A stretch of DNA of 64,000 nucleotides from contig DYJC01000001.1 of assembly GCA_020723305.1 (NCBI GenBank), positions 392,661-456,660 of the forward strand. Direction: 5' to 3'. Position numbers and translations under genes: made by a program. The DNA is from Desulfosudis oleivorans. Its GTDB lineage: Bacteria; Desulfobacterota; Desulfobacteria; Desulfobacterales; SURF-7. This document shows positions 29,654 to 63,515 of this stretch, in pieces (position 1 is the stretch's first letter; each line of letters starts with the position of its first letter). The notes under the pieces were generated by a model, which ran no database searches, had not been told where the DNA came from, and saw nothing but the letters and a program-made list of their open reading frames with translations.

Positions 29654-30757
29654 ATGAAGATGAAAAAAAGCATCATCCAAAAAATTCAACAATCCCTTAC
29701 CCGCTGGTATAGGGAAAACAGCCTGGACCTGCCCTGGCGGAAAACAGATGATCCATACCAGGTGTGGGTATCGGAAGTGATGCTCCAGCAGACCCGGATC
29801 GAAACCGTTATCCCGTATTACAACCGGTTTATGGAAAAATTTCCGGATGTAGAAAAACTGGCTGGATCGGATATACAGCAGGTGTTAAAACGATGGGAGG
29901 GTCTTGGGTATTATGCAAGGGCGCGCAACCTGCACAAGGCAGCGCAGGTCATCTGTGAAAAATTTCAAGGCAGGCTGCCTGACACACGGGAAGAACTGCT
30001 CACGCTTCCCGGAATCGGCGGTTACATTTCTGCGGCCATTGCCAGCATCAGTTTCCACATTCCGGCAGCCGTTGTTGACGGAAACGTGAAACGGGTTCTG
30101 GCAAGGCTGTTTATGGATGCCACACCCATCAATGCTACAGGTGAAAAAAATCAGTTTGAAACCTATGCTGTAAAACTTCTAGATCCGGACCAACCCGGAG
30201 ATTTCAATCAGGCCATCATGGAGTTGGGGCAAAGGATATGCAAACCCGGAAAACCGGTTTGCAGCGATTGCCCGGTTCAGGAATTCTGCATGGTTTTTCA
30301 GGCAGACAAGGTCGGCCAGTACCCGGTAAGGGTTGTGAAAAAATCCATCCCTCATAAAAAAATGAACTATGCAATCGTGTTCCAGGGGGAAAAATGTCTT
30401 CTCCTCCGGCGTCCTGCTGAAGGTCTGTTAGGAGACTTGTGGGAGTTTCCCGGTTATGAGCAGGACCGGCAAACAGACCAACCTGAAAAACAGCTTGCAG
30501 ATAAGATACGCCGGATGACGGGTATCCGGATCAGCGTAAAGGAAAAAATCGGGACTGCCGCCCATGCCTATACCCATTTCAAGGTTACAGCAGATATTTA
30601 TCTCTGTTTTTATAAATCCGGAGAAATCCGCCTGGACGGTCCAACAGAACACCAGTGGATTCTTCCGGAAGAGATCCGGCAGTTCCCATGCCACAAACTG
30701 ATTCACAAAATATTCCCGATGCTGGACAGACTTGTGAATCAAACTGAAACGTTTTGA
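29654..30757 (+). CDS. mutY: A/G-specific adenine DNA glycosylase
   Basis: HhH-GPD region (VSEVMLQQTRIETVIPYYNRF, LPGIGGY), a 4Fe-4S cluster loop CKPGKPVCSDCPVQEFC and a C-terminal NUDIX-like domain. The start was set to the first ATG, 15 nt inside the TTG-initiated track ORF. Confidence 0.9.
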   Translation: MKMKKSIIQKIQQSLTRWYRENSLDLPWRKTDDPYQVWVSEVMLQQTRIETVIPYYNRFMEKFPDVEKLAGSDIQQVLKRWEGLGYYARARNLHKAAQVICEKFQGRLPDTREELLTLPGIGGYISAAIASISFHIPAAVVDGNVKRVLARLFMDATPINATGEKNQFETYAVKLLDPDQPGDFNQAIMELGQRICKPGKPVCSDCPVQEFCMVFQADKVGQYPVRVVKKSIPHKKMNYAIVFQGEKCLLLRRPAEGLLGDLWEFPGYEQDRQTDQPEKQLADKIRRMTGIRISVKEKIGTAAHAYTHFKVTADIYLCFYKSGEIRLDGPTEHQWILPEEIRQFPCHKLIHKIFPMLDRLVNQTETF

Positions 30758-30766
30758 AATTGGCTC
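30750..30766 (+). repeat. Solo right terminal repeat of the hairpin element family
   Basis: cgttttgaaattggctc is identical to the right ends at 32818-32834 and 63499-63515. It overlaps the last codons and the stop of mutY. Confidence 0.5.
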
Positions 30767-30839
30767 GAATGATAAAAAAAAGGGTATTTCCCGATCTGTC
30801 GGAAAATACCCTTATCAACTTCAGTGAAAAAAAAAAAAA

Positions 30840-31040
30840 TTAAACTACGGTAACATTGACAGCAGCCGGACCTTTTTTGCCCTGCTCAATGTCAAAGGTA
30901 ACGCGGTCGCCTTCATTCAAAGTTCTGAAGCCGTTTGAATTGATTCCTGAATGATGAACAAATACATCCGGACCATCTTCCGGCTCAATAAAGCCATAAC
31001 CCTTGCTGCTGTTAAACCATTTTACGATTCCATTAGCCAT
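30840..31040 (-). CDS. Cold-shock protein (CspA family)
   Basis: [31 protein letters not shown] contains the RNP1/RNP2 motifs. A strong RBS (aaaggaggg) precedes this ATG. The 32-codon extension in the track ORF was discarded. Confidence 0.92.
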
Positions 31041-31263
31041 TGTTTTACACCCTCCTTTTAAATTTTCTCTTTGTTCTAGACTCGGGGTGCCACTTTGACA
31101 AATGGATCTACCCTTTAGAACGAAACCGATCCGCATATCAAACGGATCCTTATATTATTGGCGGGAGCATACCATATTTTTTTAAAAAAACAATATTATT
31201 TTGCAGTGTATAAAAAATAGGATGTCTGGTATAAAACAGATAGAAAAATGGAGACTGAAAAAA

Positions 31264-32034
31264 ATGAACATCCTTTTAACAAATGATGATGGAATCCTTG
31301 CCAGAGGAATTCTGGCTGTCCATAAAACATTTTCCCAAAAGCATGAAGTGTCCGTGATTGCTCCGGATCGTGAAAGAAGCGCTGTGGGACACGGTATTAC
31401 CCTGAACATGCCCATCCGGGCAAAAAAGATCCTGTTAAACGAACAGGATTGGGGGTACGCAGTCAGCGGAACTCCGGTGGATTGCATCAAACTGGGTATC
31501 CTGGAACTTCTTTCCCGGAAACCGGACCTGGTTGTTTCCGGAATCAATCCTGGTGTAAACACGGGCGTAAACATCAACTATTCCGGAACAGTGGCCGCTG
31601 CCAGAGAAGCTTGTCTATATGGAATTCCTTCCATCGCCGCCTCCATAAAAGGACGCGATCCGATCCATTTGAATGATGCAGCCTTGTTTGTTCTCAGGCT
31701 TGGCGAGCAGATTGTCAAAACCGGTCTTCCGGCTGGAACATTTCTGAATGTCAACTTCCCGGACCTGCCCATCGATCATTTCCCAAACATCCGGATCTGC
31801 CGCCAGGATCTTTCGTTTTATAATGAATACATTGATAAAAAAACAGACCCGCGAGACCAAACCTACTATTGGCATGGCGCTGAATTGAGCAATAACATGC
31901 CTGAATCGGATGCAGATACCCCGAATGTACATAACAATTACATTTCCATTACACCGATCAAGTGTGATATGACGGATTACGCTTTGATAGACGAACTGAA
32001 AATATTAGAAAGCTTCAGTATTACAAAAGAATAG
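31264..32034 (+). CDS. surE: 5'/3'-nucleotidase SurE
   Basis: MNILLTNDDGI and GINPGVNTGVNINYSGTVAAARE motifs. The start was moved to the conserved N-terminus. Confidence 0.9.
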   Translation: MNILLTNDDGILARGILAVHKTFSQKHEVSVIAPDRERSAVGHGITLNMPIRAKKILLNEQDWGYAVSGTPVDCIKLGILELLSRKPDLVVSGINPGVNTGVNINYSGTVAAAREACLYGIPSIAASIKGRDPIHLNDAALFVLRLGEQIVKTGLPAGTFLNVNFPDLPIDHFPNIRICRQDLSFYNEYIDKKTDPRDQTYYWHGAELSNNMPESDADTPNVHNNYISITPIKCDMTDYALIDELKILESFSITKE

Positions 32035-32041
32035 GAAAAAC

Positions 32042-32677
32042 ATGTTTATTACACTGGAAGGAATAGAGGGTTCCGGAAAAACAACACAGGTGTCGAATAT
32101 TGTAAAATTTTTACAAGAAAAAGGACATGCGTGTGTCATCACAAGGGAACCTGGTGGAACCGAAATCGGCAGGCAGATACGTGCGATTCTATTAAACCCC
32201 GTCCATAAGGATCTGGATCCGCTGGCCGAACTGCTGCTATATGCCGCAGACCGTGCCCAGCACATGAAATCCATCATAAAACCTCAATTATCCGCTGGGA
32301 AAACAGTTATCTGTGATCGATTCTTTGATGCAACAACTGTATACCAGGGATTTGCACGGGGTTTGGATATGAAGGTCATCAACCAGCTTCACCGGATGGT
32401 ATTGGATTCAATCAAACCTGATCTGACGCTGCTCTTTGATCTGCCTGTTGAAACCGGGCTTGGAAGGGCTCTGAACTGCCTGGATAATGGATCACGGGCC
32501 ATCCAGGAGTGCCGATTTGAAAAAGAAACGCTTGCCTTTCATGAAAAAGTCAGATCCGGATACCTCTCACTTGCAAAGCAGGAACCCAATCGATTTCAAA
32601 TCATCAATGCATCCAATGATGAAAACCAGGTTTTTCAGGAGATCATCATTGCCCTGACCCATAACTTGAAAAAATGA
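32042..32677 (+). CDS. tmk: Thymidylate kinase
   Basis: FITLEGIEGSGKTT P-loop and DRF motif. Confidence 0.92.
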   Translation: MFITLEGIEGSGKTTQVSNIVKFLQEKGHACVITREPGGTEIGRQIRAILLNPVHKDLDPLAELLLYAADRAQHMKSIIKPQLSAGKTVICDRFFDATTVYQGFARGLDMKVINQLHRMVLDSIKPDLTLLFDLPVETGLGRALNCLDNGSRAIQECRFEKETLAFHEKVRSGYLSLAKQEPNRFQIINASNDENQVFQEIIIALTHNLKK

Positions 32678-32712
32678 CACCCCGGACAGATTATCAATCA
32701 AAATTTTCAGAT

Positions 32713-32834
32713 GAGCCAATTACAAAAGTCTGTTATTGTAGTTCCGGCGAAAATTAGAATCCAGTATTTTCGGCTCTTTTCTGAGCACTGACTTTCGCCG
32801 GTGTGACGCTTTATAATCGTTTTGAAATTGGCTC
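32713..32834 (+). repeat. MITE-like hairpin element, short variant (122 bp)
   Basis: Terminal inverted repeats gagccaattacaaaa / ttttgaaattggctc and inner arms ccggcgaaa / tttcgccgg. It is flanked by direct TCAGAT on both sides, with the right copy overlapping the element end. Confidence 0.8.
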
Positions 32835-32877
32835 AGATTGTTTACAGATCACAAACAGAATGTGAGGAATTCAACAC

Positions 32878-33846
32878 ATGAATGCAATTTATTTCCCGTT
32901 TACCTGTGTTTCAAAACAACACGCTGAAAAATTATCAGCGATCTTCGAACCGCTTACGGTTTATCTGCCATCTGCCGGATCCATATCATCCCAGTTGGAA
33001 GCGCTTTCGACAACCGGAAGGATCGATATCCGGATACCGGTTCAAAAAGATGAAGACAAACTGATGGGTGCATATCAAGAACATATCCAATGGGGAAAGA
33101 CACATCGTCAGAATGTAAAATCCTACTTGAAACATCGGACAGAAGGCCATTATCTATATGACGATTCATGGTCGGCTCAGATCCGGTCTGACATTCAGAG
33201 CATATCCAAAACTAAAACATCTCCGGATACGGTTTTTTCTGCAAGACTTTTTCTGCTGATCGCACAGCAATATGATCAACATCATCTGGAGATGATTCAA
33301 AATGTTCAATCCATTGCGAACAAGGAAAAATCAATCTTCAAAGGTCTGAAAGACGATGATTTCCAGAAAATCGATGAACATTGTGAACCCCTATCAGACA
33401 GTATGCCGGATCTTGGCCTCTATATGCCCCAGGAACGGCTGTCGTCATGGTGCACATTGATGAAACAGGATGATGAAATCCCTTCCAGTATCCTGATAAC
33501 CAGTTCTCCGGGTGTCTGGGAGCATCTTCTGGACGTTTCCCCGGAAGCGGAAATAATTGGACAAGGCTTTCCGGTTCATTATGCGGAATCGACATCCAGT
33601 AAGCAGTGTCAGGATTTAGCCGAACTGCTTTCCTCTCTTCAGACAGAGGAATGGTCATCATCCAATCATCAACGTACCTGGAACAGATTGATAGGCAAGG
33701 ATCAAACCGGAGTTCATTCTGAATTCCGAATTATCCCGGATATCCATCCGAAAACATTTTTTTCCAGGCATACGAAACAACTTGTAAATAACATGAAACC
33801 GCATACGGAATCTTTTCGAAATACAATCATCGGGATTCTGCAATAA
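32878..33846 (+). CDS. Hypothetical protein (322 aa, no recognisable motif)
   Basis: Long ORF with coding-like composition and no TM segment or signal peptide. I recognise no family. Confidence 0.5.
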   Translation: MNAIYFPFTCVSKQHAEKLSAIFEPLTVYLPSAGSISSQLEALSTTGRIDIRIPVQKDEDKLMGAYQEHIQWGKTHRQNVKSYLKHRTEGHYLYDDSWSAQIRSDIQSISKTKTSPDTVFSARLFLLIAQQYDQHHLEMIQNVQSIANKEKSIFKGLKDDDFQKIDEHCEPLSDSMPDLGLYMPQERLSSWCTLMKQDDEIPSSILITSSPGVWEHLLDVSPEAEIIGQGFPVHYAESTSSKQCQDLAELLSSLQTEEWSSSNHQRTWNRLIGKDQTGVHSEFRIIPDIHPKTFFSRHTKQLVNNMKPHTESFRNTIIGILQ

Positions 33847-33923
33847 ATTATACAATAACAATCAGATGAACAGATATGTAAAGGCAAGATCGTTTCGCTA
33901 TTTGAAAAAAAACAGAAGAAAGC

Positions 33924-33950
33924 TTGACTCAGCAAATTAACTAGTATAAT
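33924..33950 (+). promoter_or_regulatory. Candidate sigma-70 promoter of the ferredoxin gene
   Basis: A consensus TTGACT and a consensus TATAAT, but with a short 15-nt spacer. It lies about 85 nt upstream of the ATG. Confidence 0.35.
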
Positions 33951-34032
33951 CAGTTTTCTCTATAATCGTGAATAATGCATGGTTGGATTAAGATAACCTA
34001 TTTATTTTTTTAACTTATAAGGAGGATTCATA

Positions 34033-34221
34033 ATGGCATTTAATCCTATCGTTGATGCGGAAAAATGTGCAGGTTGCGAAGAATGTGTAGATGTATGTCC
34101 TGTAGAAGTTTTTGAGATGAAAAATGAAAAATCTGTACCTGTTAACGCTGAAGAATGTTTAGGCTGTGAGAGCTGCGTTGAAGTTTGTGAAGAAGACGCC
34201 ATCACAATCGAGGAAACCTAA
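34033..34221 (+). CDS. 2x[4Fe-4S] ferredoxin
   Basis: CAGCEECVDVCP and CLGCESCVEVCE cluster motifs in 62 aa. Strong RBS (aaggagg). Confidence 0.88.
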   Translation: MAFNPIVDAEKCAGCEECVDVCPVEVFEMKNEKSVPVNAEECLGCESCVEVCEEDAITIEET

Positions 34222-34228
34222 AAACAAT

Positions 34229-34267
34229 CCCCCGGCCTTTTTTTATCGATTAGACCGGGGGTTTTTA
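34229..34267 (+). terminator. Rho-independent terminator after the ferredoxin gene
   Basis: The cccccgg ... ccggggg stem is followed by a T5 run. Confidence 0.6.
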
Positions 34268-34317
34268 TTCTTAGTCGCCTCTTTCCCTCATCAACCGATA
34301 AAATATTCCCTTCCATT

Positions 34318-35610
34318 ATGAATAAAATAAAAAGTCATGGTGAGCTTTTTTTCCCTGTAATGGCCGTTATCCGGCAAGACCTGTATCGAGCCCCGGAAAT
34401 GGATATTCAGCGTCGAGTATGGGAAACACTTAAAAACTGCATTCCAAAACAGCGGGTCACCCCTGGAGAGACTGTTGCCGTAGCTGTAGGAAGCAGGGGA
34501 ATTCATCATCTCAATATTATCGTAAAGGAAACCATTTGTTTTTTGCTTCATCTTGGGCTGAATCCCATCATTGTCCCGGCTATGGGGAGTCATGGCGGTG
34601 GAACTCCTGAATCTCAAGAGTCGCTATTAAATTCCTATGGGATTTCTCAATCCTCCATGGGTGTACCGGTTGTATCGGACATGGATGTAAAAGAGATTGG
34701 AACCCTGAATGAAAAAACACGCATCTTCTTTTCTGCAGCCGCCCATTCTTGTGACCATATCGTTGTAATCAACCGGATCAAGCCACACACAAAATTCCGT
34801 GCAGAAATCGAAAGCGGAATATGCAAAATGATGGTTGTGGGATTAGGTAAAAAGCATGGCGCTGTTGAAATCCATCAAAAGGCAATCCACCACTCTTTTA
34901 AAATTATTGAAGAGGCGGCTTGTTTTATCCTGAAAAATTGCAGCATCCTGTGTGGCATCGGAATCGTTGAAGATGGGTACGGCAAGCCGGCCCATATCGA
35001 GGCAATACCCCCGGATATATTGATTGACCGCGAAAAAATCCTCTTACAAAAAGCCAATCAGCATCTGGCCCGTATTCCCTTTCAAGAAATTGATATCCTG
35101 ATTATTGATCATATCGGCAAGGATATCAGTGGAATCGGTATGGACTCCAATGTTACCGGACGTCACCGGGACATCACTGGTGATTTTCAAATCTACCCCC
35201 ATGTGAAACGAATTTTTGTGCGAGACCTTTCACCAAATTCCGATGGTAATGGAAATGGAATCGGCCTTGCCGACTTTACAACAAAAAGGCTTGTAGAAGC
35301 ACTTGATTTGAAAAAAACCTATACCAATTCGATTGCAGCCATTTCTCCGGAAAAAGCAGCCATTCCCGTTTATCTTGAATCTGATTTTCTGGCCTTGGAA
35401 GCCTGTATGCAGACATGCGGAGCCCAATCAACAGATTCTGCATGTATCATCCGGATTCAAAACACTAAGGATTTGGAATACATACAGATATCAAAAACAT
35501 TAGAAAAAGAAGCCAAAGAAAAAAACATGATTCATTTTATCACTCCGTGGCAACCCATACAGTTTTCTGCCGACGGCAATCTGTTTGATTTTCAATCCTT
35601 GCTGCCCTGA
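34318..35610 (+). CDS. LarA-like (DUF2088-type) domain protein, tentative
   Basis: 430 aa. VAVAVGSRGI...IVPAMGSHGGGTPESQESLLNSYGI and RIKPHTKFRAEIESGICKMMVVGLGK resemble the N-terminal layout of the lactate-racemase family. Resemblance only. Confidence 0.4.
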   Translation: MNKIKSHGELFFPVMAVIRQDLYRAPEMDIQRRVWETLKNCIPKQRVTPGETVAVAVGSRGIHHLNIIVKETICFLLHLGLNPIIVPAMGSHGGGTPESQESLLNSYGISQSSMGVPVVSDMDVKEIGTLNEKTRIFFSAAAHSCDHIVVINRIKPHTKFRAEIESGICKMMVVGLGKKHGAVEIHQKAIHHSFKIIEEAACFILKNCSILCGIGIVEDGYGKPAHIEAIPPDILIDREKILLQKANQHLARIPFQEIDILIIDHIGKDISGIGMDSNVTGRHRDITGDFQIYPHVKRIFVRDLSPNSDGNGNGIGLADFTTKRLVEALDLKKTYTNSIAAISPEKAAIPVYLESDFLALEACMQTCGAQSTDSACIIRIQNTKDLEYIQISKTLEKEAKEKNMIHFITPWQPIQFSADGNLFDFQSLLP

Positions 35611-35906
35611 TCCAGCCAACCGTTTCGTTTATCCGATTGATTTAATGCTGTTATTTTTTCAAAGTTTTTAGAAAATCCGCATATTTTTTCTTTTATCTTT
35701 TGACACGGATAGAGAATTCACATATAGCATAAATAAAGAAAACGTAATTCCGAAAGGTTAACAATGTTAAAATGCGATACCTTTAAGTGATTATTTTACG
35801 ATAACATATTATAAATAAAAATAAATAATGGATTAGCGTTCATCGTGCAATCCAGAATTATGCTCCTTTGATGCCACATATAGCCAATACCCGGAGGACG
35901 TAAACG

Positions 35907-36749
35907 ATGAAATATTTTCTTTGTTTTATCTTTCTACCTATATTTGTAGTAGTAAACGCTGCCTTTTGTGCGCAGGTAGGAAACATTTCCGACCCAGCCT
36001 CTTTATCCCAGGGCAGACTCTCTGGTGAGAGGCCATATGCTCTCATGGCAGGTATTGAAAGTGATTTTGTGTCCGGAAAAAGATTTAACGAACAGACCAA
36101 TAAATTTAAATTCAATTTTTACGGCATGAAAATCGGCAGTATAATCCGGGACAGACTTTATGTATATGGGATTGTAGGAATGGGTGAAATGAAAGACAAA
36201 AAAATAATTTATGATTATGATCCGGATAAAGATGTTGCAGATGTCCGGATTGAATATGTTGACCTTCAAACAGACCAGAACTTGGTTTTTGGCGCAGGAA
36301 TAACGGCAATCATGCATGAAGAAAAACTGGATGAAGATGTTTTTTTCAGAATCGGCTTTGATGCAAAATATCGAAGAATCAGCTTTGACTCAAACAATAC
36401 TAAAGTAATCCTTACAAACTGGGCCGAAAACGGCGCTATTCAGTCCTACCCTGCTTCCTATGCCATGAATGTCAATGAATTCCAGGGAGCCATCGTTGCT
36501 TCATACCAGTATGAAAAAATTGCCCCTTATATCGGTTACAGAATATCGGACTGGAATGGCGAAGAAGAAATTGTGGTTAACAGTTTTACCGAAGGCAATA
36601 TTAATTATAATGGCAGCCTTGAAACAAACGGACAAAAAGGGTATTTTATCGGAATCACCTATTACATCTCAAAAGCATTTTCCATTGGATTAGAAGGCAG
36701 GGAGAGAGATGAAGAAGCCCTGAACCTGACCGCACAAATGAGATTTTGA
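35907..36749 (+). CDS. Outer-membrane beta-barrel protein
   Basis: Signal peptide MKYFLCFIFLPIFVVVNAAFCAQ, an alternating amphipathic pattern, aromatic-rich strands, and a C-terminal ...LTAQMRF ending in Phe. Confidence 0.6.
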   Translation: MKYFLCFIFLPIFVVVNAAFCAQVGNISDPASLSQGRLSGERPYALMAGIESDFVSGKRFNEQTNKFKFNFYGMKIGSIIRDRLYVYGIVGMGEMKDKKIIYDYDPDKDVADVRIEYVDLQTDQNLVFGAGITAIMHEEKLDEDVFFRIGFDAKYRRISFDSNNTKVILTNWAENGAIQSYPASYAMNVNEFQGAIVASYQYEKIAPYIGYRISDWNGEEEIVVNSFTEGNINYNGSLETNGQKGYFIGITYYISKAFSIGLEGRERDEEALNLTAQMRF

Positions 36750-36760
36750 TCCATTAACAC

Positions 36761-36796
36761 ACCTGATTTTTATTTCCTGACCCAAATCAGGTTTTT
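36761..36796 (+). terminator. Rho-independent terminator after the OMP gene
   Basis: acctgattt ... aaatcaggt forms a 9-bp stem followed by tttt. Confidence 0.6.
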
Positions 36797-36941
36797 CCAA
36801 TTCAATTTGACTCATTATTTAATTGTCAGTTTCACGAAATAATGCTATCGTCCCCCAAAATAAATACAACAATGGTTTCAGAATCTTGTACAGGAAGCAT
36901 CCAAAGCAATCACGTATCTTTATTTTCGGGGAGGTTATTCT

Positions 36942-38606
36942 ATGTGGCATACGCTGAGCATTGCAAAAAAGATCTGGTTCAGTATTATTATTCTGATAAT
37001 CGGATACTTTATTTCAATGATCTTCGGGTTTTCAAGAGGGGTTCAGACTGAATCACTCCTCCTGGATGTTTCAAACTCGCTTTTTCCGGCATCTCAGCAA
37101 AGTCAGGCAGCCTTAACCGCATTCAAGGAACAGATAAAATTTTATGAGAATGTCGTTATCATCGGAGACAGTTCTTCTATCGAGACCGCTAAAAAAAAGT
37201 CATTAGAAACAATAGAGAATCTTCAGGCCATTCTTGACAAATCCAACATCTCTGGAGAAAAAACAATTGAAGTGAAAAACCTGATTCAGCTTCACTCTGA
37301 TTTCACTAAAACCGCCAATGCCGTATATGGCTCCTTGAACACAGATACGGAAGGTAACTCCAATAATACAAAAACCGCAGAACTGGCTGACCAAACCAAA
37401 ATCATTTTAAACCGTCTGGAAATATTAACCAACTCATTCTCAGAAGAGCTCAGGTCAAATCTTTCCAGCGTTCGAAATGCCACCAAAAAACTTCGAATTC
37501 TCAACCTGACCCTGTTTTTTGTTGTCGCTATCGGTGCATCGATCCTTATTTTCTTTATTGTAAAAAAATCCATCAGCGAACCCCTCATCAAAACGGTTAA
37601 AATGATTCGCGATATTGCCGAGGGTGAGGGAGATCTGACAAAACGGCTGCATGTCTCCAGCAAAGATGAAGTAGGAGATTTATCACAATGGTTCAATACA
37701 TTCATCAACAACCTTCAAGGAATGATCCAGAATATTGTTGAAAATGCAGATATTTTGAAAACCGCTTCCAAAGAGCTTACCGATCTTTCTTCTCTGATGA
37801 GTGATGGCGCAAATCAGATGTCCATGAAATCCAATACAGTGGCATCTGCCGCAGAAGAGATGAACTATAATATGGATTCTGTTGCCGCAGCAATGGAAGA
37901 GGCTTCGACCAATACAGGAATGGTTGCAACCGCTGCTGAACAGATGACCTCAACAATCAACGAAATCGCACAGAATTCGGAAAAAGCGGCAATCATAACG
38001 AGTGAAGCTGTCACCCAGGCCAAGAAAGCTTCAGACAGGGTAGCAGAGCTAGGGGTTGCCGCACAGGAAGTAGGAAAAGTTACAGAAGCCATTACGGAAA
38101 TTTCAGAACAGACCAACCTTCTGGCCCTCAATGCAACAATCGAAGCAGCCCGTGCCGGCGATGCAGGAAAAGGTTTTGCAGTTGTTGCCAATGAAATTAA
38201 AGAACTCGCACGGCAAACCGCAGAAGCCACACATGACATTAAACAAAAAATTGAAGGCATCCAGGGAACAACCGCCGGAACCGTATCCGATATTGAACAG
38301 ATTTCCAAGATCATTAACGATGTGAATGAAATCGTTTCCACCATTGCAACTGCGGTTGAAGAACAATCTGTAACAACAAAGGAGATTGCAAGTAACGTGG
38401 TTCAAGTTTCCGGCGGTATTCATGATGTAAATGAAAATGTCGCACAAAGTTCAACCGTAGCCGGACAGATTGCCGGTGATATCGCAGAAGTCAACCAGGC
38501 GGCCAATGAAATGTCCAATAGCAGTTCACAATTGAACATCAATGCGGAAAAATTGACCAATCTTGCTGTTCAACTCAATGATCTTGTAGGCAAATTCAAG
38601 ATTTAG
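36942..38606 (+). CDS. Methyl-accepting chemotaxis protein (TM-sensor-TM-HAMP-signalling domain)
   Basis: Two TM segments, a HAMP region ([23 protein letters not shown]) and the highly conserved hairpin tip [30 protein letters not shown]. Confidence 0.92.
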
Positions 38607-38619
38607 TGTAAAACCGTCC

Positions 38620-54007: not shown

Positions 54008-54026
54008 TCTTATTCAGATGACCTGG

Positions 54027-54833: not shown

Positions 54834-54842
54834 ATATTCATC

Positions 54843-55160
54843 TTATTCATAAAATTTTTTTAATACCTTGCTTTCATTACCCTTATCAATATCATCCAAA
54901 GCAAACAAAATTGCAGCTTCAACAAATGCAGACTTATTCTCAATCTGCATTCCGGCAAGCTTTAACTCATGAAATTTACGAGTGAACCGATCAAGCACTT
55001 CCAGAGAAAGATAAAAACCTGCTTTTTTTTTCTTCTTTTCTTCTAGGGGAGAATTCTTATCGTTATCTTTTTCACCTGAACCGATTGCCGCCATCACAGG
55101 ATCGAATGCAATATTTTCAAAAAAATCAGGTTTTTCATTGTTTCCGATCGTCATCCCCAT
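54843..55160 (-). CDS. Small ParA-partner protein, probable ribbon-helix-helix (ParG-like)
   Basis: 105 aa with a disordered Lys-rich N-terminal half, then FYLSLEVLDRFTRKFHELKLAG...FVEAAILFAL in a strand-helix-helix pattern. It overlaps the ParA-like gene by 26 bp. Confidence 0.45.
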   Translation of the reverse strand: MGMTIGNNEKPDFFENIAFDPVMAAIGSGEKDNDKNSPLEEKKKKKAGFYLSLEVLDRFTRKFHELKLAGMQIENKSAFVEAAILFALDDIDKGNESKVLKKFYE

Positions 55161-55911: not shown

Positions 55912-56224
55912 TTTCCACTCCAGATATAGAGCATACTTTTTTTCCTGTCCGCGTTTTATACATATCTTTTTAGAATAATCAACTGATTCTTGGTTGTTTT
56001 TCAGATGAGACTGTTTTTAATATGCTTTGATACATTTTAATCAAAAGGATGAAAGGGCGGAAATATGAAAAAAGTTAAAATATACTTGCCCAATCCGTTA
56101 TAATGCTATATGAAATCCATAAAAAATACTTGTAAATAATACCAAAACAATCCAAACTATGGTTAACACACAAAATCGGATGAAGAAAAATTCTTCACTT
56201 TTTATCTGAACACCTGATAAGGAA

Positions 56225-56605
56225 ATGCAAAAAAAATATAAAATTCTGATAATTGACGACAGTGAAGAGATACTGAATACGTATAAAAAATTTTTTATAA
56301 AAAAAAATTATTCGGTCGCAACAGCTTCTAATGGATTGGATGGATTAAAGATACTCCAGACCGAGCCAAACGATTTTGACCTTATCATCACGGATATCGT
56401 TATGCCGAATATCAGCGGTGTTGGTATCATTTCTATTGTTAAAAAAAAATTTCCGGAGATACTTATCATTGCCATTACAGGCTGGGGAGAGCATCCAGGT
56501 ATGCTGGCATCTGAGGCAGAGGCAGATCTTGTACTGGAAAAACCAATTGACCTGATGGAACTGGATAAACGAATTATTGATCTTATCCAGTCAAAAACAA
56601 TTTAA
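56225..56605 (+). CDS. Stand-alone response-regulator receiver domain (REC half of a split NtrC-type regulator)
   Basis: IIDDS, the phospho-acceptor ITDIVMP, AITGW and EKP motifs, 126 aa. Confidence 0.85.
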   Translation: MQKKYKILIIDDSEEILNTYKKFFIKKNYSVATASNGLDGLKILQTEPNDFDLIITDIVMPNISGVGIISIVKKKFPEILIIAITGWGEHPGMLASEAEADLVLEKPIDLMELDKRIIDLIQSKTI

Positions 56606-56668
56606 AGTCAGCTGATTATGATTAACTGAAATTTTCATACAACCATTTAAACGAAAACATTTAAGAAT

Positions 56669-57706
56669 ATGCAAAGCGGACCCCCGATCATAGGCGTTAG
56701 TCCAGCCATTGTCAGAGTTACTGACCTGATCAATCATGTTGCAGATACAGGGCTGAATATCGTAATTTCCGGCGAGACCGGCGTTGGAAAAGAGGTAATC
56801 GCACAAAACCTGTATCAAAAATCCCCAAGAAAAGGGAAACCGTTTGTCAAGGTCAATTGTGCAGCCCTTCCCGAAGGACTTCTTGAGAGTGAGCTTTATG
56901 GTTACGAACGAGGAGCCTTCACAGGGGCGGAACAAAAAAAACGCGGGAAATTTGAACTGGCCAACGGAGGTGTACTGTTTCTTGATGAAATCGGGGATAT
57001 GCCGATTTTGTTACAGTCAAAGCTGCTCCATGTTCTCCAAAGCGGGGAATTCGCTCCTCTTGGATCAGAAAAAGAATTTAAAACAGATACATGGCTTATC
57101 GCAGCAACCAATCATGATTTGGAAGATGAAATTAAAAAACATAAATTCCGTGAGGATCTGTATTATCGGTTAAATATTATTAAAATATATATCCCGCCTC
57201 TTCGAGAGAGAACCGAGGATATTCCGCATCTGATCAATTATTACAGTCAACTGTATACGTCTCAATTCAACAATAGAAACATTCTCCAGCCCAGCAGTCG
57301 GGTATTACAAAAACTATCCGAATATTACTGGCCAGGCAATGTCCGGGAGCTTCAAAACGTATTGAAAAGAGTATTGGTTCTTGGTAGTTGGGATGATATC
57401 ATTGATGGATTCGATTATGGATATGGATCATCAAATGCTGTTCGCCAAAAAACGGAACAAGTTCAACCACCGATACCTTCATCCAATAATTTTCTATTCC
57501 AGAATGGACAAGCACCTGATCTGGAATCCTTTTCATTAAAGGATATCAAGAAAAACGCTTTGGATAAAGTTGAAAAGGAAGCCATCTCTTACATATTGGA
57601 AAAGACCGGGTGGAACCGTAGCAGAGCATCCAAAATATTAAAAATCAGCTATAAAACATTATTATATAAAATAAGTGAGTTGGGAATTCTACCGCCGACA
57701 ACATAG
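56669..57706 (+). CDS. Sigma-54 interaction (AAA+) domain plus Fis-type HTH protein lacking a sensory domain
   Basis: GETGVGKE Walker A, GAFTGA, the ESELYGYERGAFTGA region, and a C-terminal HTH RSRASKILKISYKTLLYKI. It begins exactly where NtrC central domains begin (IIGVSPAI). Confidence 0.87.
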   Translation: MQSGPPIIGVSPAIVRVTDLINHVADTGLNIVISGETGVGKEVIAQNLYQKSPRKGKPFVKVNCAALPEGLLESELYGYERGAFTGAEQKKRGKFELANGGVLFLDEIGDMPILLQSKLLHVLQSGEFAPLGSEKEFKTDTWLIAATNHDLEDEIKKHKFREDLYYRLNIIKIYIPPLRERTEDIPHLINYYSQLYTSQFNNRNILQPSSRVLQKLSEYYWPGNVRELQNVLKRVLVLGSWDDIIDGFDYGYGSSNAVRQKTEQVQPPIPSSNNFLFQNGQAPDLESFSLKDIKKNALDKVEKEAISYILEKTGWNRSRASKILKISYKTLLYKISELGILPPTT

Positions 57707-57756
57707 AGCTTGAAGCTTCATCTCAATTGGATTTCAGATGGCTCCCCAATTATTTT

Positions 57757-59247
57757 TTAAATATCCTGAATCCCGAACCTGGTGACCAAACGTGACAAAT
57801 AGGTCCTTTGAATCCCCATAACCTGAGCAGCCTTGCTTCGATTTCCCCCTGTATTTTTCAGGTTCAACTTGACAAACTCTTTCTTGAATTCATTCAATGC
57901 ATCTTCCAGAGAAATCCCGACTTGCATACCGGGGTATTTTGTTTTCGGATCAAAAATCGGCAAATCCTCGGGCAGCACCTTTTTCCCGTTACCCATTACA
58001 ACTGCCCGTTCTAAAGCATTGCGCAACTCCCTCACATTTCCCGGCCAGTTGTATCCAATCATTTTTTCCATAGCCTCTTCCGATATAATCAACCCTGGAG
58101 TTCCTCTTTCCAACCGAAAAGATTCGATGAAGTGTTCCGCAAGGAAAGGAATATCTGCTTTTCTTTCTCGAAGTGGCGGCATCTCAATTGTGACAACATT
58201 CAATCGATAATACAAATCCTCCCTGAACTTGCCCTCTTCAATTTCCTTAAGAATTTCACGGTTTGTGGCAGATATAACCCTCACATTGACATGGACGGGT
58301 GTGTTCCCGCCAACACGATAAAAAATCCCTTCCTGTAGTACCCTGAGGAGCTTTGCCTGCATACCCGGACTCATCTCACCAATTTCATCCAGAAACAGGG
58401 TTCCTTGATCGGCGAGCTCAAATTTACCAATTTTTTTATTGATCGCACCAGTGAAAGCCCCTTTCTCATGGCCGAAAAGTTCATCTTCCAGCAATGATTC
58501 AGGGAGTGCCGCACAATTCAAAACAACCAATGGTTTATCTTTTCGAAGACCAACCCGGTGAATCAACCGGGCAAGCAACTCCTTTCCGGTTCCGCTTTCA
58601 CCAAGAATTATCGTACTTGTAGTCGAATTTGCTACCTTTGTGGCTTCCTGTATAATTTTCTGAATTGAACTGCTATTTCCAACGATTTGATATTTTGCTG
58701 CGAGCTCCTCTTTTAAATCTCTATTTTCACGGTCTACCTGTACGATTTTCCGTGCATTACCGATTGCATGGGCAGCAAGCTCTCCGAACTCCGTCAATAT
58801 TTTCAAGTCGTCATCAACAAACGATGTCCCATTGATTTTATCGATAATCTCAATTACGCCAATAATTTCATCACCAACTTTCATGGGTGCGCAAATAATT
58901 GAATGGGTTTGAAAACCAATGGACTCGCTGATATCCTTATTCCAGCGTGGATCTTTTCGTACATCTGAAATCAGCAAGGGTTCTCCTGTCTGTGCCACCT
59001 TACCGGCGATCCCTTCTCCAATTTTTATCTTAAACCGCTTCAGTTCTTCTTTTTTATCGCCTGTAGCAACTTTGAAATATAGATCCCCTGTCTCCTGCTC
59101 CAGCAATAGCAATGATCCAGCCTTTGACTGCATGATACGTACTGCTTTTTCAACAGTAAATTCAAGGAACTGATCCAGATTCTGTATAGGAGAAGCCTCT
59201 CCGAGGTGATCAGAATAATCTGTTTGTCCGTTTAATCTCTTTTTCAT
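57757..59247 (-). CDS. GAF-domain sigma-54-dependent transcriptional activator
   Basis: N-terminal GAF domain (AGSLLLLEQETGDLYFKVATGD...), GESGTGKE, GAFTGA, and a C-terminal HTH NRSKAAQVMGIQRTYLSRL. Confidence 0.9.
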   Translation of the reverse strand: MKKRLNGQTDYSDHLGEASPIQNLDQFLEFTVEKAVRIMQSKAGSLLLLEQETGDLYFKVATGDKKEELKRFKIKIGEGIAGKVAQTGEPLLISDVRKDPRWNKDISESIGFQTHSIICAPMKVGDEIIGVIEIIDKINGTSFVDDDLKILTEFGELAAHAIGNARKIVQVDRENRDLKEELAAKYQIVGNSSSIQKIIQEATKVANSTTSTIILGESGTGKELLARLIHRVGLRKDKPLVVLNCAALPESLLEDELFGHEKGAFTGAINKKIGKFELADQGTLFLDEIGEMSPGMQAKLLRVLQEGIFYRVGGNTPVHVNVRVISATNREILKEIEEGKFREDLYYRLNVVTIEMPPLRERKADIPFLAEHFIESFRLERGTPGLIISEEAMEKMIGYNWPGNVRELRNALERAVVMGNGKKVLPEDLPIFDPKTKYPGMQVGISLEDALNEFKKEFVKLNLKNTGGNRSKAAQVMGIQRTYLSRLVTRFGIQDI

Positions 59248-59487
59248 TCTAAAAACACCAGCAATATGATTAATTTAATAACTATTTTGGATTGAAACCA
59301 TTGTGACATGAACGATAAAAAAGCATAACCGAAAGAGATCTGTGTGTCAAACAAAAGGGGAAATATCCGGAAATTGAGAGTACGTCTGTAACCATTCGTA
59401 TTTATAAATTTACTATTGAAATGGGATCAAAAAAGTATCGCAGGGATTTAAATTAACCACGTTATCCATGCGGAAAGACCATAAGGG

Positions 59488-60426
59488 TTACTTTGCTCCG
59501 GCGATTTTAGCAAATTGCGTATCAACAAATTTTTCCAGATCAATTTTATTTTGCATTTTTTTCATAATATCACACATATAATCTTGTATCACAGCCAGGT
59601 CCTCAATCACCGGGAACAATTCTCCTGTTGTAATGCGATCAGCAGGCGTAGTTAGAACACGCTCGACAATCGCTTTATCTTGACCCAGAAAATCCGCTCC
59701 AATGGCCGCTGCTGCCGAAGGCTGAGCATCAATGGACATACCAGACCGAACAAGGCTGGTGGTAAGTTCCTGGACGCCATCTGGGTTTTTCCCAATTATT
59801 TCATTACGCACAACAAAAACACAGCAAGGATGGTTTGGCCAGAGATCTTTGGAAAGACACATCTCCTCGCAAAGACCACCGGCAATTGCCTGTGAACCGA
59901 TTGGCTCTGCAACGATAAATCCGCCGATTTCTCCTTCTTCATCGTATTTAATTGCATCATTCATCATCATTGGAGCCATTACCTCAAGTACGACATCAAC
60001 TCCTGGTTCATTGCTGGTGCCGGGTTTTAATCCTTTTTCTGAAAGCAACCTGTGAAATAGCATATTATGGACGGAAAGCTGGTATGGAATTAAAACCGCT
60101 TTCCCGGCAAAATCCTCGATTTTTTCTATATTTGCCGCTTTGCTTTTTACCAGCACGCTTCCTGATTTATGGGTAAATAAAATAAGCTTAATACCGACTC
60201 CGGATTTAAACAGATCCATTGCAGTGGGAGCCAATATGAACGCGCCATCGATGCTGCCGTTTGCCAGTGCATCAGCAACCTCATTCCAGCCGTTCTTTAG
60301 AACTGTTTTCAGAGTACAATGTTCGAATACTTCTTTCCCCTTTTTTTGCTTTAAGTCTGTGACGCCAAGAATGAGATGATCCGTAATTTTCAGATGTCCA
60401 ACCTTGATAACCGGTTTTTCTGTCAT
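59488..60426 (-). CDS. NMT1/NrtA-type (NitT/TauT family) substrate-binding-like protein without signal peptide
   Basis: The type II periplasmic-binding-protein-fold pattern (KVGHLKITDHL, DGAFILAPTAM) is present, but the N-terminus MTEKPVIKVGH has no hydrophobic leader. No permease or ATPase genes are adjacent. Confidence 0.65.
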   Translation of the reverse strand: MTEKPVIKVGHLKITDHLILGVTDLKQKKGKEVFEHCTLKTVLKNGWNEVADALANGSIDGAFILAPTAMDLFKSGVGIKLILFTHKSGSVLVKSKAANIEKIEDFAGKAVLIPYQLSVHNMLFHRLLSEKGLKPGTSNEPGVDVVLEVMAPMMMNDAIKYDEEGEIGGFIVAEPIGSQAIAGGLCEEMCLSKDLWPNHPCCVFVVRNEIIGKNPDGVQELTTSLVRSGMSIDAQPSAAAAIGADFLGQDKAIVERVLTTPADRITTGELFPVIEDLAVIQDYMCDIMKKMQNKIDLEKFVDTQFAKIAGAK

Positions 60427-60466
60427 GAGCTCCCTCCTTCAATTATTAGACATTCACGAATGATAT

Positions 60467-60841
60467 TTACGCAAATATTTTTTCAAGTTTTTCAATAATC
60501 GCATCTGCCGTAAAAGGCTTGACAACATAGTTTGAAACACCTGCCTTAACCGCCTCGATCACGTTTTGTTTTTGCGCTTCTGCTGTCACCATGAGAACGG
60601 GTATTTCTTTGAACTCACTGTGTGAACGAATCGTTTTCAATAATTCCAGCCCGGTCATTTTGGGCATGTTCCAATCGGATATCACAAGATCAAATTGTGT
60701 TTTGCTCATTGCCTCTAAAGCTGTTATGCCATCATCAGCCTCTGAAATGTTGGTAAATCCGATCTGCTTGAGGATATTCTTTAATATTCTACGCATTGTG
60801 GCAAAATCATCTACAACTAAAATTTTCTTTGAAAAATCCAT
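60467..60841 (-). CDS. cheY: Chemotaxis response regulator CheY
   Basis: ILVVDDFATMRRI, ISDWNMPKMTG, MVTAEA and VVKPF, the canonical CheY residues, in 124 aa. Confidence 0.88.
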   Translation of the reverse strand: MDFSKKILVVDDFATMRRILKNILKQIGFTNISEADDGITALEAMSKTQFDLVISDWNMPKMTGLELLKTIRSHSEFKEIPVLMVTAEAQKQNVIEAVKAGVSNYVVKPFTADAIIEKLEKIFA

Positions 60842-60879
60842 TTAGGCCCTCCGTTTATCGTATGATTTTTCATTCAGAA

Positions 60880-61022
60880 GAGCCAATTTCAAAAGTCTGT
60901 TGTTGTAGTTCCGGCGAAAACTAGACACGCAGTGAAGCGTAGCGCTATCCGGTATTTTCGACTCTTTTCTATGCACTGGCATTCGACGGTGTGACGCTTT
61001 ATGATAGTTTTGAAATTGGCTC
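60880..61022 (+). repeat. MITE-like hairpin element, medium variant (143 bp)
   Basis: Perfect 15-bp terminal inverted repeats gagccaatttcaaaa / ttttgaaattggctc. It is flanked by direct TCAGAA and lies in the cheX-cheY spacer, 10 bp from the cheX stop. Confidence 0.85.
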
Positions 61023-61032
61023 AGAATCGATA

Positions 61033-61491
61033 TTATTCAAAACATACCTCTATCGTAAAATTCCCATCATCGGTTGTAAAAGGAATAGCGAATTTGGGTC
61101 CATTCGCGATACCATAAATTGTATGATTTTTCCCAGTTACCACGGTTGGAATGGCTGCTTGAAAAATTTTACCCATCTCTTCAAGCCCAATCCGGGCTTG
61201 TCCGGAAATCATATTGGTTATTTCTCCAACCGCATCCTGAACATCTCTATTGATCGTATAAACCTTCTCACCCAGCATATTGGAGACAATTTTTAAAATA
61301 CAACTTTCGTTAAATGTAACTGAAATGGTACCGTTTTGCTCTCCTGTGATACCAATAATTCCTGAGACATCACCTATAGCAATGGAATCTTTCTTCAGAT
61401 AAACTTTTCCAGCTGTTGACTTCACAAAAGCCATTGTTTCCAAAACTTTTATAGTTGCACTGATAAAAGGGTTGATGATTTTTACATCCAC
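61033..61491 (-). CDS. cheX: CheY-P phosphatase CheX (CheC/CheX/FliY family)
   Basis: 152 aa with INPFISATIKVLETM and the active-site-type segment DAVGEITNMISGQ. Confidence 0.8.
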   Translation of the reverse strand: MDVKIINPFISATIKVLETMAFVKSTAGKVYLKKDSIAIGDVSGIIGITGEQNGTISVTFNESCILKIVSNMLGEKVYTINRDVQDAVGEITNMISGQARIGLEEMGKIFQAAIPTVVTGKNHTIYGIANGPKFAIPFTTDDGNFTIEVCFE

Positions 61492-61821
61492 AGACGTAAC
61501 CTCCCATCCTAAAATTTAATTATTGAAAAACAATAGAGAGTATTTTGAACCATTAAAATTGAAGGCCCAAGCCACAAATCAAAATTTTTCGTAGTAAATC
61601 CGGTACAATTCAGTAAGATCTATGATGATGATTTTTTTGAAATAATCAGATAAGAGTAAAAAGATAATGATGCATTTCGCTAACGCTACTGTTTTATGTA
61701 TATCACAATAATTAAATCCGGTCTATAATAACTTCATAAAAAAATATTTCAATCGTTCTCATAACCACACGATCCCAAAGGATTCAGTGTAATCCAGATC
61801 ATATTCAAATCTGTATATCCT

Positions 61822-62943
61822 TCACCTTTCTTCTAATAAAAAGGGGGCAACCCGGGATGACTCATTGATTCCTTTGGAAATCACCAAATTCCGTCCAATA
61901 GCAATGCCATCGGCTTCCACCGCTGGACTCCGATGACCACTATATTTTAAAGTTGTTTTCAAATTTGGATATTTATAATCGACAAACTGCCTAAGTCTTG
62001 AATCTTCGACTACAACCATCTCCCAACCTTCAACAGCCGATCTGCCATTATCCTGGTCTTCCAGCTTTTGACGGAACCCTTTGATGATCCCCGTGGAAAA
62101 ATCGATTCTATGATAGTGATTATATAACGTGCCGACTTTATATTCATCCCACTTACGGTTACAATAAAGCTTAATGAACATATACACATATTCAGCGATC
62201 ATCAGATTTTTATCGGTCCCGCTGATTTCAAGTACTCTCCCCATTTTCCCTTTGTCTAAAACAAACGCCGATACCCAAACTCCTTTTACAAAATAATAAT
62301 CGATGATCAAATTTGCCAAATAGTATTCATCGCTGGAATGGCGGAGCCTTGGAAACCCCAGAAAAATGCTTTTATACCCTCTTTTTGCATCTGTTTGAAT
62401 AAGCTGCACATTATATTTTTTAATCAGCAGTCTTGCCTTTGCCATAGCAGCCTCAGCTTCATTTTGATTCCGGCTTTCCGCCAGGGCCATCAGCTTTTTT
62501 ATCCGGATTATTATTTTATCTTCTGTCGCAACCGAATCATATTGGATCTGTTCATGCAGCGTTCTGTATTTCCCTGAGGCTTTAGGATTTGCTCTTAATA
62601 AGAGGCAGGCCTCCTGAAAAATCGGACCATGTGCGGACTCATCCTCTCCGGAAAAAACTTCTGATGCGAGCTGGTGTGCCATTTCGTGAAGCAAAACATC
62701 TTTTATTGAATCCCAGGGATGGTTTAAAACAAAATCGATGCTAAGACATATTTCTCTTTTGGATTTAGACCAATATCCAAGACATTGTTTCATATCGGAC
62801 AAACGAAACAAAGGCCTTCGCATTTGTCTTTGGATATCGGGCGTTAGAAGGATTCGTGCAGCATCCCATTCACAGGCAAGGCCATGAACGATTCGTTTTT
62901 CCAACTCTTCCCGGCAGATTGATTTGTCTTTATACTGCATCAA
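61822..62943 (-). CDS. SprT-like zinc metallopeptidase domain fused to DUF2786-like and C-terminal uncharacterised domains
   Basis: The HExxH motif in VLLHEMAHQL, followed by IIIRIKKLMALAESRNQNEAEAAMAKARLLIKKY (DUF2786-like helix pair), then about 190 aa of unknown function. Confidence 0.5.
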   Translation of the reverse strand: MMQYKDKSICREELEKRIVHGLACEWDAARILLTPDIQRQMRRPLFRLSDMKQCLGYWSKSKREICLSIDFVLNHPWDSIKDVLLHEMAHQLASEVFSGEDESAHGPIFQEACLLLRANPKASGKYRTLHEQIQYDSVATEDKIIIRIKKLMALAESRNQNEAEAAMAKARLLIKKYNVQLIQTDAKRGYKSIFLGFPRLRHSSDEYYLANLIIDYYFVKGVWVSAFVLDKGKMGRVLEISGTDKNLMIAEYVYMFIKLYCNRKWDEYKVGTLYNHYHRIDFSTGIIKGFRQKLEDQDNGRSAVEGWEMVVVEDSRLRQFVDYKYPNLKTTLKYSGHRSPAVEADGIAIGRNLVISKGINESSRVAPFLLEER

Positions 62944-63012
62944 TGCTTCGAGTTTTCTCCAATCGATTCATGATTTTTGTAAAAAATAATTCAAATGAGT
63001 ATTTTCAGGATG

Positions 63013-63324
63013 TTATTTCTCAGGCAAAATGATTCTTTGTTTATCCGGATCTGTCTGCTTACGGTAAAAGATAGCCGTGTGTCCGATCATACCAACCATT
63101 TCACTTTGTGTCTTTATTTCAAGATCACGAATGATTTCATTTTTTTGTTCTTTTTCCTTACAATCAATAAATTTAATTTTAATAAGCTCATGAGCTTCAA
63201 TTGCATCTTCAATTGCCAGTAAAACCGCTTCGGTTTTACCCTTTTGCCCGATAAAAACAACCGCTTTCAGACTGTGTGCAATCCCACGAAGGTATTTCCG
63301 TTGAAAGCCCTTCAGCTTTTTCAT
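63013..63324 (-). CDS. yhbY: Ribosome assembly RNA-binding protein YhbY (CRS1/YhbY domain)
   Basis: MKKLKGFQRKYLRGIAHSLKAVVFIGQKG...ELIKIKF matches the family pattern. The start was moved to this ATG because the 35-codon extension in the track ORF runs into the repeat element. Confidence 0.8.
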   Translation of the reverse strand: MKKLKGFQRKYLRGIAHSLKAVVFIGQKGKTEAVLLAIEDAIEAHELIKIKFIDCKEKEQKNEIIRDLEIKTQSEMVGMIGHTAIFYRKQTDPDKQRIILPEK

Positions 63325-63349
63325 ATCAATGCTCCGTTTTTTATAATGG

Positions 63350-63515
63350 GAGCCAATTTCAAAAGTCTGTTGTTGTCGTTCCGGCGAAAACGAGACACGC
63401 AGTGCAGTTTTCCAAGCCGCCAGGCGCAACCGTAGCGCTATCCAGTATTTTCGGCTCTTTTCTGGGCACTGACATTCGCCGGTGTGACGCTTTATAATCG
63501 TTTTGAAATTGGCTC
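63350..63515 (+). repeat. MITE-like hairpin element, long variant (166 bp)
   Basis: Same termini as the other copies. It contains 23 and 44 extra central nucleotides relative to the 143- and 122-bp copies. It lies between a hypothetical gene and yhbY. Confidence 0.85.

Follow-up and report, generated by a model that had tools for sequence, protein, structure and literature searches.

A miniature inverted-repeat transposable element family with 4-bp target duplications in Desulfosudis oleivorans and Desulfocicer-like bacteria

Correia elements of Neisseria (CREE or NEMIS) have repeats of about 26 bp and duplicate TA, and REP elements are imperfect palindromes of 20-40 nt that are not known to make target duplications. 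Correia transcripts are cut by RNase III, and in Yersinia an RNase E site of the 3' repeat takes part in the effect that ERIC has on the mRNA level (PMC10969869). Chunjie of Geobacter uraniireducens, a MITE (miniature inverted-repeat transposable element), is described as having conserved repeats, duplications and size variants, as being mostly intergenic, and as inserting in an operon without destroying it (PMC10969869, with reference to Chen et al. 2008). Here, a further MITE family is described, which was found in a 64,000-nt stretch of DNA from Desulfosudis oleivorans (GenBank assembly GCA_020723305.1, contig DYJC01000001.1, positions 392,661 to 456,660 of the forward strand; this whole stretch is called the window). 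The copies are non-coding and 120-166 nt long, the only open reading frames (ORFs) that overlap them are trivial ones, and most copies are flanked by 4-bp target duplications. The window had been described before from its letters and ORF translations, and that description is referred to as the initial annotation.

Copies, target duplications and empty sites

The copies in the window are given below together with the target duplications and with one target site that is empty in the window and occupied in a metagenome-assembled genome (MAG) of Desulfocicer sp.

32713-32834, + strand: MITE copy of 122 nt; target duplication AGAT at 32709-32712 and 32835-32838
60880-61022, + strand: MITE copy of 143 nt; target duplication AGAA at 60876-60879 and 61023-61026
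63350-63515, + strand: MITE copy of 166 nt, longest class, haplotype A (see below); no target duplication (flanks ATGG vs ACAG)
30750-30766, + strand: solo right end of 17 nt, CGTTTTGAAATTGGCTC
15158-15161: empty target site TCAG; in the Desulfocicer sp. MAG contig CAYTGW010000019 (L080), positions 7403-7524 are a 122-nt copy with TCAG on either side

The three copies had been placed at these coordinates by the initial annotation, which also named the solo end, and both the coordinates and the common + strand were confirmed. The intergenic positions that it had assigned (tmk/orphan, cheX/cheY and yhbY/orphan) were borne out by Pfam, with which thymidylate kinase, CheX, the CheY-type receiver and YhbY were all identified. 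The 122-nt copy sits in sense orientation between tmk (32042-32677, + strand) and an orphan ORF of 322 amino acids (32878-33846, + strand). The 143-nt copy sits between cheX (61033-61491, - strand) and a cheY-type receiver gene (60467-60841, - strand) and is antisense to both, 10 nt downstream of the cheX stop and 38 nt upstream of the cheY start. The 166-nt copy is flanked by an orphan ORF of 129 amino acids (63521-63910, - strand) and a gene with a YhbY/CRM domain. End-to-end alignment of the three copies gave central gaps of 23 and 44 nt, the 23-nt gap being nested within the 44-nt gap, in agreement with the progressively shorter centre that had been claimed. The 15-bp perfect terminal repeats and the shared inner arms of the initial annotation stand in general, except that the left repeat of the 122-nt copy (GAGCCAATTACAAAA) has one mismatch and that in the 143-nt copy the right inner arm (TTCGACGG) is imperfect.

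The terminal 15-mer GAGCCAATTTCAAAA has seven matches in the window with up to two mismatches (0.71 expected), and none of 100 shuffles reached seven. The small copy number in the window, taken by itself, would fit chance or an assembly artefact, but this excess and the finding of more than 80 copies in independent assemblies leave no room for that explanation. With a profile made from 66 family members, the matches in the window were the three copies and the solo end only. A weak nhmmer match at 30603-30630 (E = 1.4) in a MutY-like gene falls in the coding region of the NUDIX domain and was rejected as chance. The MutY-like ORF (29639-30757) stops at a TGA (30755-30757) that belongs to the solo end; because the stop is supplied by the MITE end, an old insertion followed by a deletion may have set the present C-terminus of the MutY-like protein.

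For the genome scan, one genome per species was searched with the first 20 nt of the element as the pattern, and at least 97 stretches were obtained; among the matches listed, most were in three MAGs (Desulfobacterium sp. SW.3.97, Desulfocicer vacuolatum and Desulfocicer sp.). Pairing of the ends gave at least 66 full copies (143 nt, 35 copies; 122 nt, 21 copies; 166 nt, 4 copies; and a few one-off lengths). A hidden Markov model profile search gave at least 42, at least 24 and at least 15 copies in these three MAGs and 3 copies in the window, that is, at least 84 in total. The mean identity of the copies to the consensus was 93.5%. All three size classes were found in several species at unrelated sites; therefore, the deletions must have taken place on one or a few occasions, with multiplication of each of the forms afterwards. 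A solo left end in one locus (L050) was considered as the start of an insertion sequence (IS) and was rejected, since only a short remnant is present there, next to an ordinary gene. The window and the Desulfocicer sp. contig given above are 90.5% identical over 7.4 kb, by which the window was assigned to a Desulfocicer-like member of the Desulfobacterota. The sole other public contig that encodes the CheY protein of the window is 100% identical over 10.4 kb and ends inside the 143-nt copy, as is usual of assemblies at repeats.

A direct repeat of at least 4 bp flanks 56 of the 64 copies that have both flanks, and nearly every repeat differs in sequence; the chance of a flanking 4-bp match is 1/256 per copy. 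The target duplications have 32% GC. With the insertions oriented alike, position -5 was C in 24 of 64 (G in 2 of 64) and position +5 was G in 35 of 64 (C in 0 of 64). These counts amount to a symmetric preference for C-NNNN-G in AT-rich surroundings, and the cut is staggered by 4 bp. The initial annotation had reported direct hexamers beside two copies and not beside the third. Two of the copies are indeed flanked and the third is not, but the true duplication is of 4 bp (AGAT and AGAA); the apparent hexamers are produced by the terminal TC of the element together with the preference of the target for C immediately to the left of the 4 duplicated bp.

The comparison of empty and filled sites in relatives, which had been proposed as a check, yielded five orthologous sites that are filled in one species and exactly empty in another. 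They include the TCAG site of the window, two sites between L091 and L006, each of which has a copy that is absent from the other in the same intergenic region, and two sites with the same reciprocal arrangement between L049 and L076. Among the comparable sites, no insertion common to two species was found. As one species had the insertion and the other lacked it at every site that could be compared, the family was active after the three Desulfocicer-like species diverged.

The repeats are thus short and non-coding, are bounded by terminal inverted repeats, make a duplication of fixed length, exist in many copies and are polymorphic for presence and absence. A transposase-encoding element with matching ends was found in metagenome contigs, and none was found in the host DNA searched. 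From the duplications at 56 of 64 copies, the five empty/filled sites, the dozens of copies and the 1.4-kb transposase elements with the same termini, we conclude with high confidence that the repeats are a true MITE, that is, a non-autonomous DDE transposon family that is dispersed at dozens of sites and was recently active; the non-autonomous transposable element of the initial annotation is thereby upheld.

Predicted fold and orientation relative to transcription

The 15-bp terminal inverted repeat (GAGCCAATTTCAAAA ... TTTTGAAATTGGCTC) is invariant or nearly so across the 66 copies. Just inside the repeat the two ends are unlike, with GTCTGT following at the left and CTATTA (read inward) at the right. 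An inner stem of 9-13 bp, CCGGCGAAA(GCCG) / (CGGC)TTTCGCCGG, encloses a centre of three nested lengths, which gives the total lengths of 166, 143 and 122 nt. The predicted fold consists of the 15-bp terminal stem, a large internal loop, the 9-13-bp inner stem and the variable centre, so that the term "long hairpin" used before was generous; the terminal and inner stems are present, but they are separated by the loop and do not form one long helix. Two linked internal haplotypes were recognized, in which the inner arms are coupled across the centre: haplotype A is AAAACTAGA ... GGGCACTGAC, and haplotype B is AAAGCCGGA ... GGACATCGGC with a perfect 13-bp inner stem. Each is present in the 143-nt and the 166-nt classes, which implies either that copies exchanged sequence or that the deletion occurred repeatedly.

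A structured-RNA family had been offered as an alternative by the initial annotation; this would be a conserved RNA, non-coding or cis-regulatory, that is kept for its fold and not spread by transposition. In its favor, both strands fold better than shuffled controls (z-scores of -2.8 to -4.8), the haplotypes are linked across the centre, and one inner-stem pair is G-C in 28 copies and A-U in 21 copies, the exchange being between the haplotypes. However, similar stability of both strands is expected of any DNA palindrome, and with RNAalifold on the 66-copy alignment 28 of the 29 pairs had no compensatory change (the covariation term was -0.4 kcal/mol). At the gathering score of Rfam, tRNA only was matched in the window, and tRNA and the cspA thermoregulator only in ten related loci. 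The copies are not at orthologous positions, and target duplications with precise empty sites are signatures of insertion. Because of the fold and covariation results and these signatures, we regard a conserved RNA gene as ruled out and leave it a very slight probability. Individual copies of the MITE may still affect the mRNAs that contain them; an influence of the cheX-cheY copy on mRNA stability or processing, as had been suggested, would have precedent in Correia and ERIC elements (PMC10969869).

That the three copies of the window have the same absolute orientation, as had been noted, is correct, but it is a small-sample coincidence (chance of 1 in 4); in the family as a whole the orientation follows the direction of the flanking genes and not the strand of the chromosome. 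Between co-directional genes, the form with GTCTGT at the 5' side was antisense 30 times and sense 8 times (binomial p = 0.0005), and the bias has the same direction in every MAG, size class and haplotype. Gene 3' ends were faced by the right end 39 times and by the left end 16 times. As a proxy for the direction of replication, the residual GC skew of each locus was used after the effect of the coding strand had been regressed out; replication was rejected as the cause of the bias, the skew being unrelated to orientation (33:28, p = 0.65). Selection after insertion is the simplest cause, because the symmetric repeats hide the orientation from the transposase. The 30:8 bias would then come from purifying selection that removes sense insertions within transcription units, probably owing to a terminator-like hairpin with a U-tract on the + strand near the right end. 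In consensus-type copies the + strand has this hairpin as ACAUYGGC-UUUC-GCCGGUGU followed by GACGCUUUUU, and it is placed where the left-to-right transposase gene of the parent IS (see below) would end. The right arm also contains a promoter-like match in two copies of the window.

63469-63498, + strand: sigma-70-like promoter match CTGACA-18-TATAAT (11/12), outward-facing, right arm of the 166-nt copy
32788-32817, + strand: promoter-like match CTGACT-18-TATAAT (10/12), 122-nt copy, directed toward the orphan ORF that starts at 32878

The stretch of the promoter match reads GCTTTTTAAT in the family consensus, where it is the U-tract of the terminator-like hairpin, and GCTTTATAAT in the 122-nt and 166-nt copies of the window, in which a single T-to-A change gives TATAAT. 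The variants of the right arm are TTTTTAAT and TTTATAAT. The terminal repeat bears the outward-facing -35-like hexamers TTGAAA and TTGGCT. The promoter and terminator matches are consensus matches, which occur at about background frequency across the region.

The terminator is a weak candidate for the cause of the orientation bias: the hairpin is a consensus match only, the length of the T-run does not differ between sense and antisense copies, and the distance to the neighbouring genes is not significantly different (p = 0.38). The genes of the MAG loci behind the 30:8 count are crude longest-ORF calls.

The same observations can be read as exaptation, in which the MITE is kept in operon spacers as an orientation-dependent regulatory module. 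It might terminate or attenuate transcription, supply an outward promoter, or form a hairpin in the mRNA by which upstream and downstream cistrons (for example, cheX and cheY) would differ in stability. This would account for the 30:8 antisense bias, which is unexplained by replication skew, for the right end at gene 3' ends, and for the presence of the terminator-like hairpin, of the 10-11/12 promoter matches and of the outward -35-like hexamers; precedents are the promoters and RNase III cleavage of Correia elements and the RNase E site of ERIC (PMC10969869). On the other hand, the insertions are not shared between species, and no individual copy looks retained. Removal of harmful orientations explains the bias equally well, covariation was not found, and the promoter and terminator matches are near their background frequency. 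We therefore consider exaptation possible but unlikely, and selection against sense insertions of the MITE is retained as the simplest cause.

Candidate parent insertion sequence

The genome scan showed a variant of the 20-mer with G in other phyla, and metagenomes were scanned with this G variant, which returned 26 contigs. In five of these (L100, L103, L105, L107 and L121), the 20-mer and its inverted copy bound units of 1409-1441 nt. Each full unit has a single ORF of 360-369 amino acids with PF05598 (DUF772; 31-40 bits, cut-off 23.1) and PF01609 (DDE_Tnp_1; 34-35 bits, cut-off 23), both above the Pfam gathering scores, and with a Y(2)R(3)E(6)K motif, which appears as YRERSTSERVNSRLK on direct reading of the transposase ORF. 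An autonomous element with the same termini, for which a search had been recommended, therefore exists as these units in metagenomes; in the window and the 97 genome loci none was found.

The best matches among the NCBIfam models were IS1182 (59-86 bits, cut-off 270) and IS5 models (45-58 bits, cut-off 110-140), and no score was above a curated cut-off in either group. By these domain and model scores the transposase is IS5/IS1182-like, in a clade without a curated model. At E <= 1e-10 there are more than 8000 relatives; almost all of these are unnamed and come from metagenome contigs of IS size, and no IS name for the clade was given by the sources searched. One of the relatives, P0108 (66% identical), is in a 1399-nt IS with related ends (GAGCCTCTTGCAAAACT). 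Several of the contigs with the P0108 IS (L125-L134) bear a second, different gene with DUF772 and DDE_Tnp_1 (410-426 amino acids) adjoining it. In the ISfinder family table, GAG ends and a 4-bp duplication are typical of the IS5 subgroup; this agrees with the assignment and is no test of it.

The left end of the MITE matches the IS in 19-20 of 20-21 nt, and the right end in 14 of 15 nt plus TATTA. Just inside the repeat, the two ends of the IS differ (GTCTGT at the left; GTATTA, read inward, at the right), and the MITE keeps this asymmetry (GTCTGT / CTATTA). The MITE may have been derived from such an IS through internal deletion, its size classes would have arisen by loss of hairpin-forming central segments, and a transposase of the IS5/IS1182-like group would mobilize it in trans. 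The metagenome contig L116 has an element of 582 nt (500-1081) in which the two IS-type ends are present but an intact transposase gene is lacking. This element is intermediate between the 1.4-kb IS and the MITE and shows the deletion route within the IS clade.

Several findings tell against this derivation. The match of the left end to the IS is by construction, since the left end was the search pattern, and the resemblance of the MITE to the IS copies of the metagenomes is limited to the terminal 17-21 nt. At position 10 the IS copies carry G where the MITE has T, and T was seen only in the right end of L100. In the window and the 97 genome loci there was no transposase homologue by tblastn and no terminal pair of IS length. 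At the IS copies no consistent 4-bp duplication was seen, but one and the same left flank continues there into differing right flanks, which marks the metagenome contigs as chimeric at the IS copies. In separate searches, blastn of a plasmid collection with the terminus gave chance-level matches of 17-26 nt only, none of them at IS ends, and the 20-mer was unmatched in viral contigs.

The 20-nt terminus GAGCCAATTGCAAAAGTCTG is also found at the ends of small elements (63-231 nt) in MAGs of other phyla; the interiors of these elements are quite different. The elements are as follows.

L013 6643-6757, L071 7696-7801, L068 2848-3078, L004, L038 and L066: small elements with the same terminus, Kiritimatiellota MAG
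L022 4552-4614 and L065: small elements with the same terminus, Zetaproteobacteria MAGs
L009: small element with the same terminus, Latescibacterota MAG
L060: small element with the same terminus

Two of the three small elements examined have 4-bp duplications (AGGA in L013 and GCTA in L022). The small elements have the appearance of independent MITE families that the same IS clade would have seeded.

Matches of the 20-mer in Treponema and other spirochaetes were rejected as copies of the MITE; they are a separate family of short hairpins that has the terminal sequence in common with it, at the following loci.

L010, L024, L034, L037, L042, L048, L051, L064, L074, L077, L084, L092 and L093: thirteen spirochaete loci with the terminal sequence

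About half of the thirteen have the terminus as a tight hairpin, GAGCCAATTTCAAAAGT-ctgtt-ACTTTTGAAATTGGCT; the remaining loci have a degenerate second arm, one that is truncated where the contig ends, or none. Several have two further hairpins, the last of which resembles a degenerate terminus (e.g., L092, about 3950-4105). A search of five spirochaete loci against Rfam gave no match.

Short hairpins of this kind from the same terminal sequence would be in keeping with a REP/BIME-type element spread by a RAYT (an IS200/IS605-like tyrosine transposase) and not by a DDE transposase, and the MITE shares with REP elements the intergenic position, the palindromic structure, the multiple copies and the orientation bias. 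Fixed 4-bp duplications and 15-bp terminal inverted repeats are, however, hallmarks of DDE transposition, and the same ends bound the insertion sequences with DDE_Tnp_1. The size of 120-166 nt with duplications also differs from the 20-40 nt of REP elements. Spread by a RAYT is thus extremely improbable, and the DDE assignment of the MITE is kept.

A wider proposal joins the right arm with the IS clade. The right arm of the MITE might keep the terminator of the parent IS and serve as orientation-sensitive punctuation of operons, in which the T-to-A change from GCTTTTTAAT to GCTTTATAAT would switch a stop to a start, while a widespread and uncurated IS5/IS1182-like clade would seed unrelated MITE and hairpin families through an identical 20-nt terminus in at least five phyla. 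Such punctuation would explain the 30:8 antisense bias. Taken as a whole, the proposal is speculative, and we judge it quite unlikely to be right.

Other repeats of the window and comparison with known systems

Two kinds of repeats other than the MITE were noticed in the window. A second repeat family of about 260 nt is present as an inverted pair at 25882-26140 and 27177-27433, and also in L081 (4064-4338). The members of the pair are 79-86% identical and have internal hairpins, and there is a 47-nt perfect repeat (26272-26318 and 27349-27395). The pair adjoins a tRNA gene (25583-25664) and flanks a region (26494-27143) with an antitoxin-like small ORF and an ORF of 130 amino acids that is PIN toxin-like by eye only. 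This family may represent a further mobile element, or it may mark the boundary of a cassette. Internal repeats with 71-88% identity were also given by the gene pair 9260-10783 and 57757-59247 and by the adjacent pair 4696-6336 and 6371-8365. The gene at 57757-59247 was annotated as a sigma-54 activator, and its partner was assumed to be likewise. Both pairs are ordinary gene duplicates that are unrelated to the MITE.

The 15-mers were in no paper that we found in the literature, and no paper was found that links MITEs to these bacteria; in a 2024 review of MITEs, Desulfo- taxa are not mentioned. For sulfate reducers, in which there is hardly any description of such elements, the family is a clean case of a MITE with recent activity. 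Its target preference, C-NNNN-G, is defined, and the candidate transposase clade is overlooked by the current curated models. The orientation bias relative to transcription makes it a simple case for how operons filter or use MITEs. In practice, short-read assemblies of Desulfocicer-like genomes are broken by these 120-166-nt repeats, and masking or labelling of them is advisable, also in operon spacers such as that of cheX and cheY. The general picture of bacterial MITEs is unchanged.

The 1.4-kb elements resemble IS5 and IS1182 in having DUF772 and DDE_Tnp_1 and the Y(2)R(3)E(6)K motif, but they are far below the NCBIfam cut-offs (86 vs 270 bits for IS1182; 58 vs 140 bits for IS5). Among the short repeats, ERIC (also called IRU) of enterobacteria and Yersinia are similar to the present MITE as transcribed intergenic imperfect palindromes of about 127 nt with size variants by insertion and deletion. 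They show little sign of recent mobility, whereas the empty/filled sites and duplications of the present MITE indicate recent transposition, and there is no sequence relationship. Chunjie, as described above, is larger (178-235 bp) and also comes from the former Deltaproteobacteria; the two are likened by description only. Correia elements are similarly intergenic and of 100-160 nt, with terminal inverted repeats and with size classes that arose by internal deletion, and both they and the present MITE have promoter-like sequences and form a hairpin when co-transcribed. The present MITE differs from Correia in its 15-bp repeats, in its variable 4-bp duplication within C-NNNN-G, in the phylum of its host and in the lack of any sequence similarity; RNA processing is a feature of Correia. 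The MITE described here works like Correia, ERIC and Chunjie, yet it belongs to none of those families.

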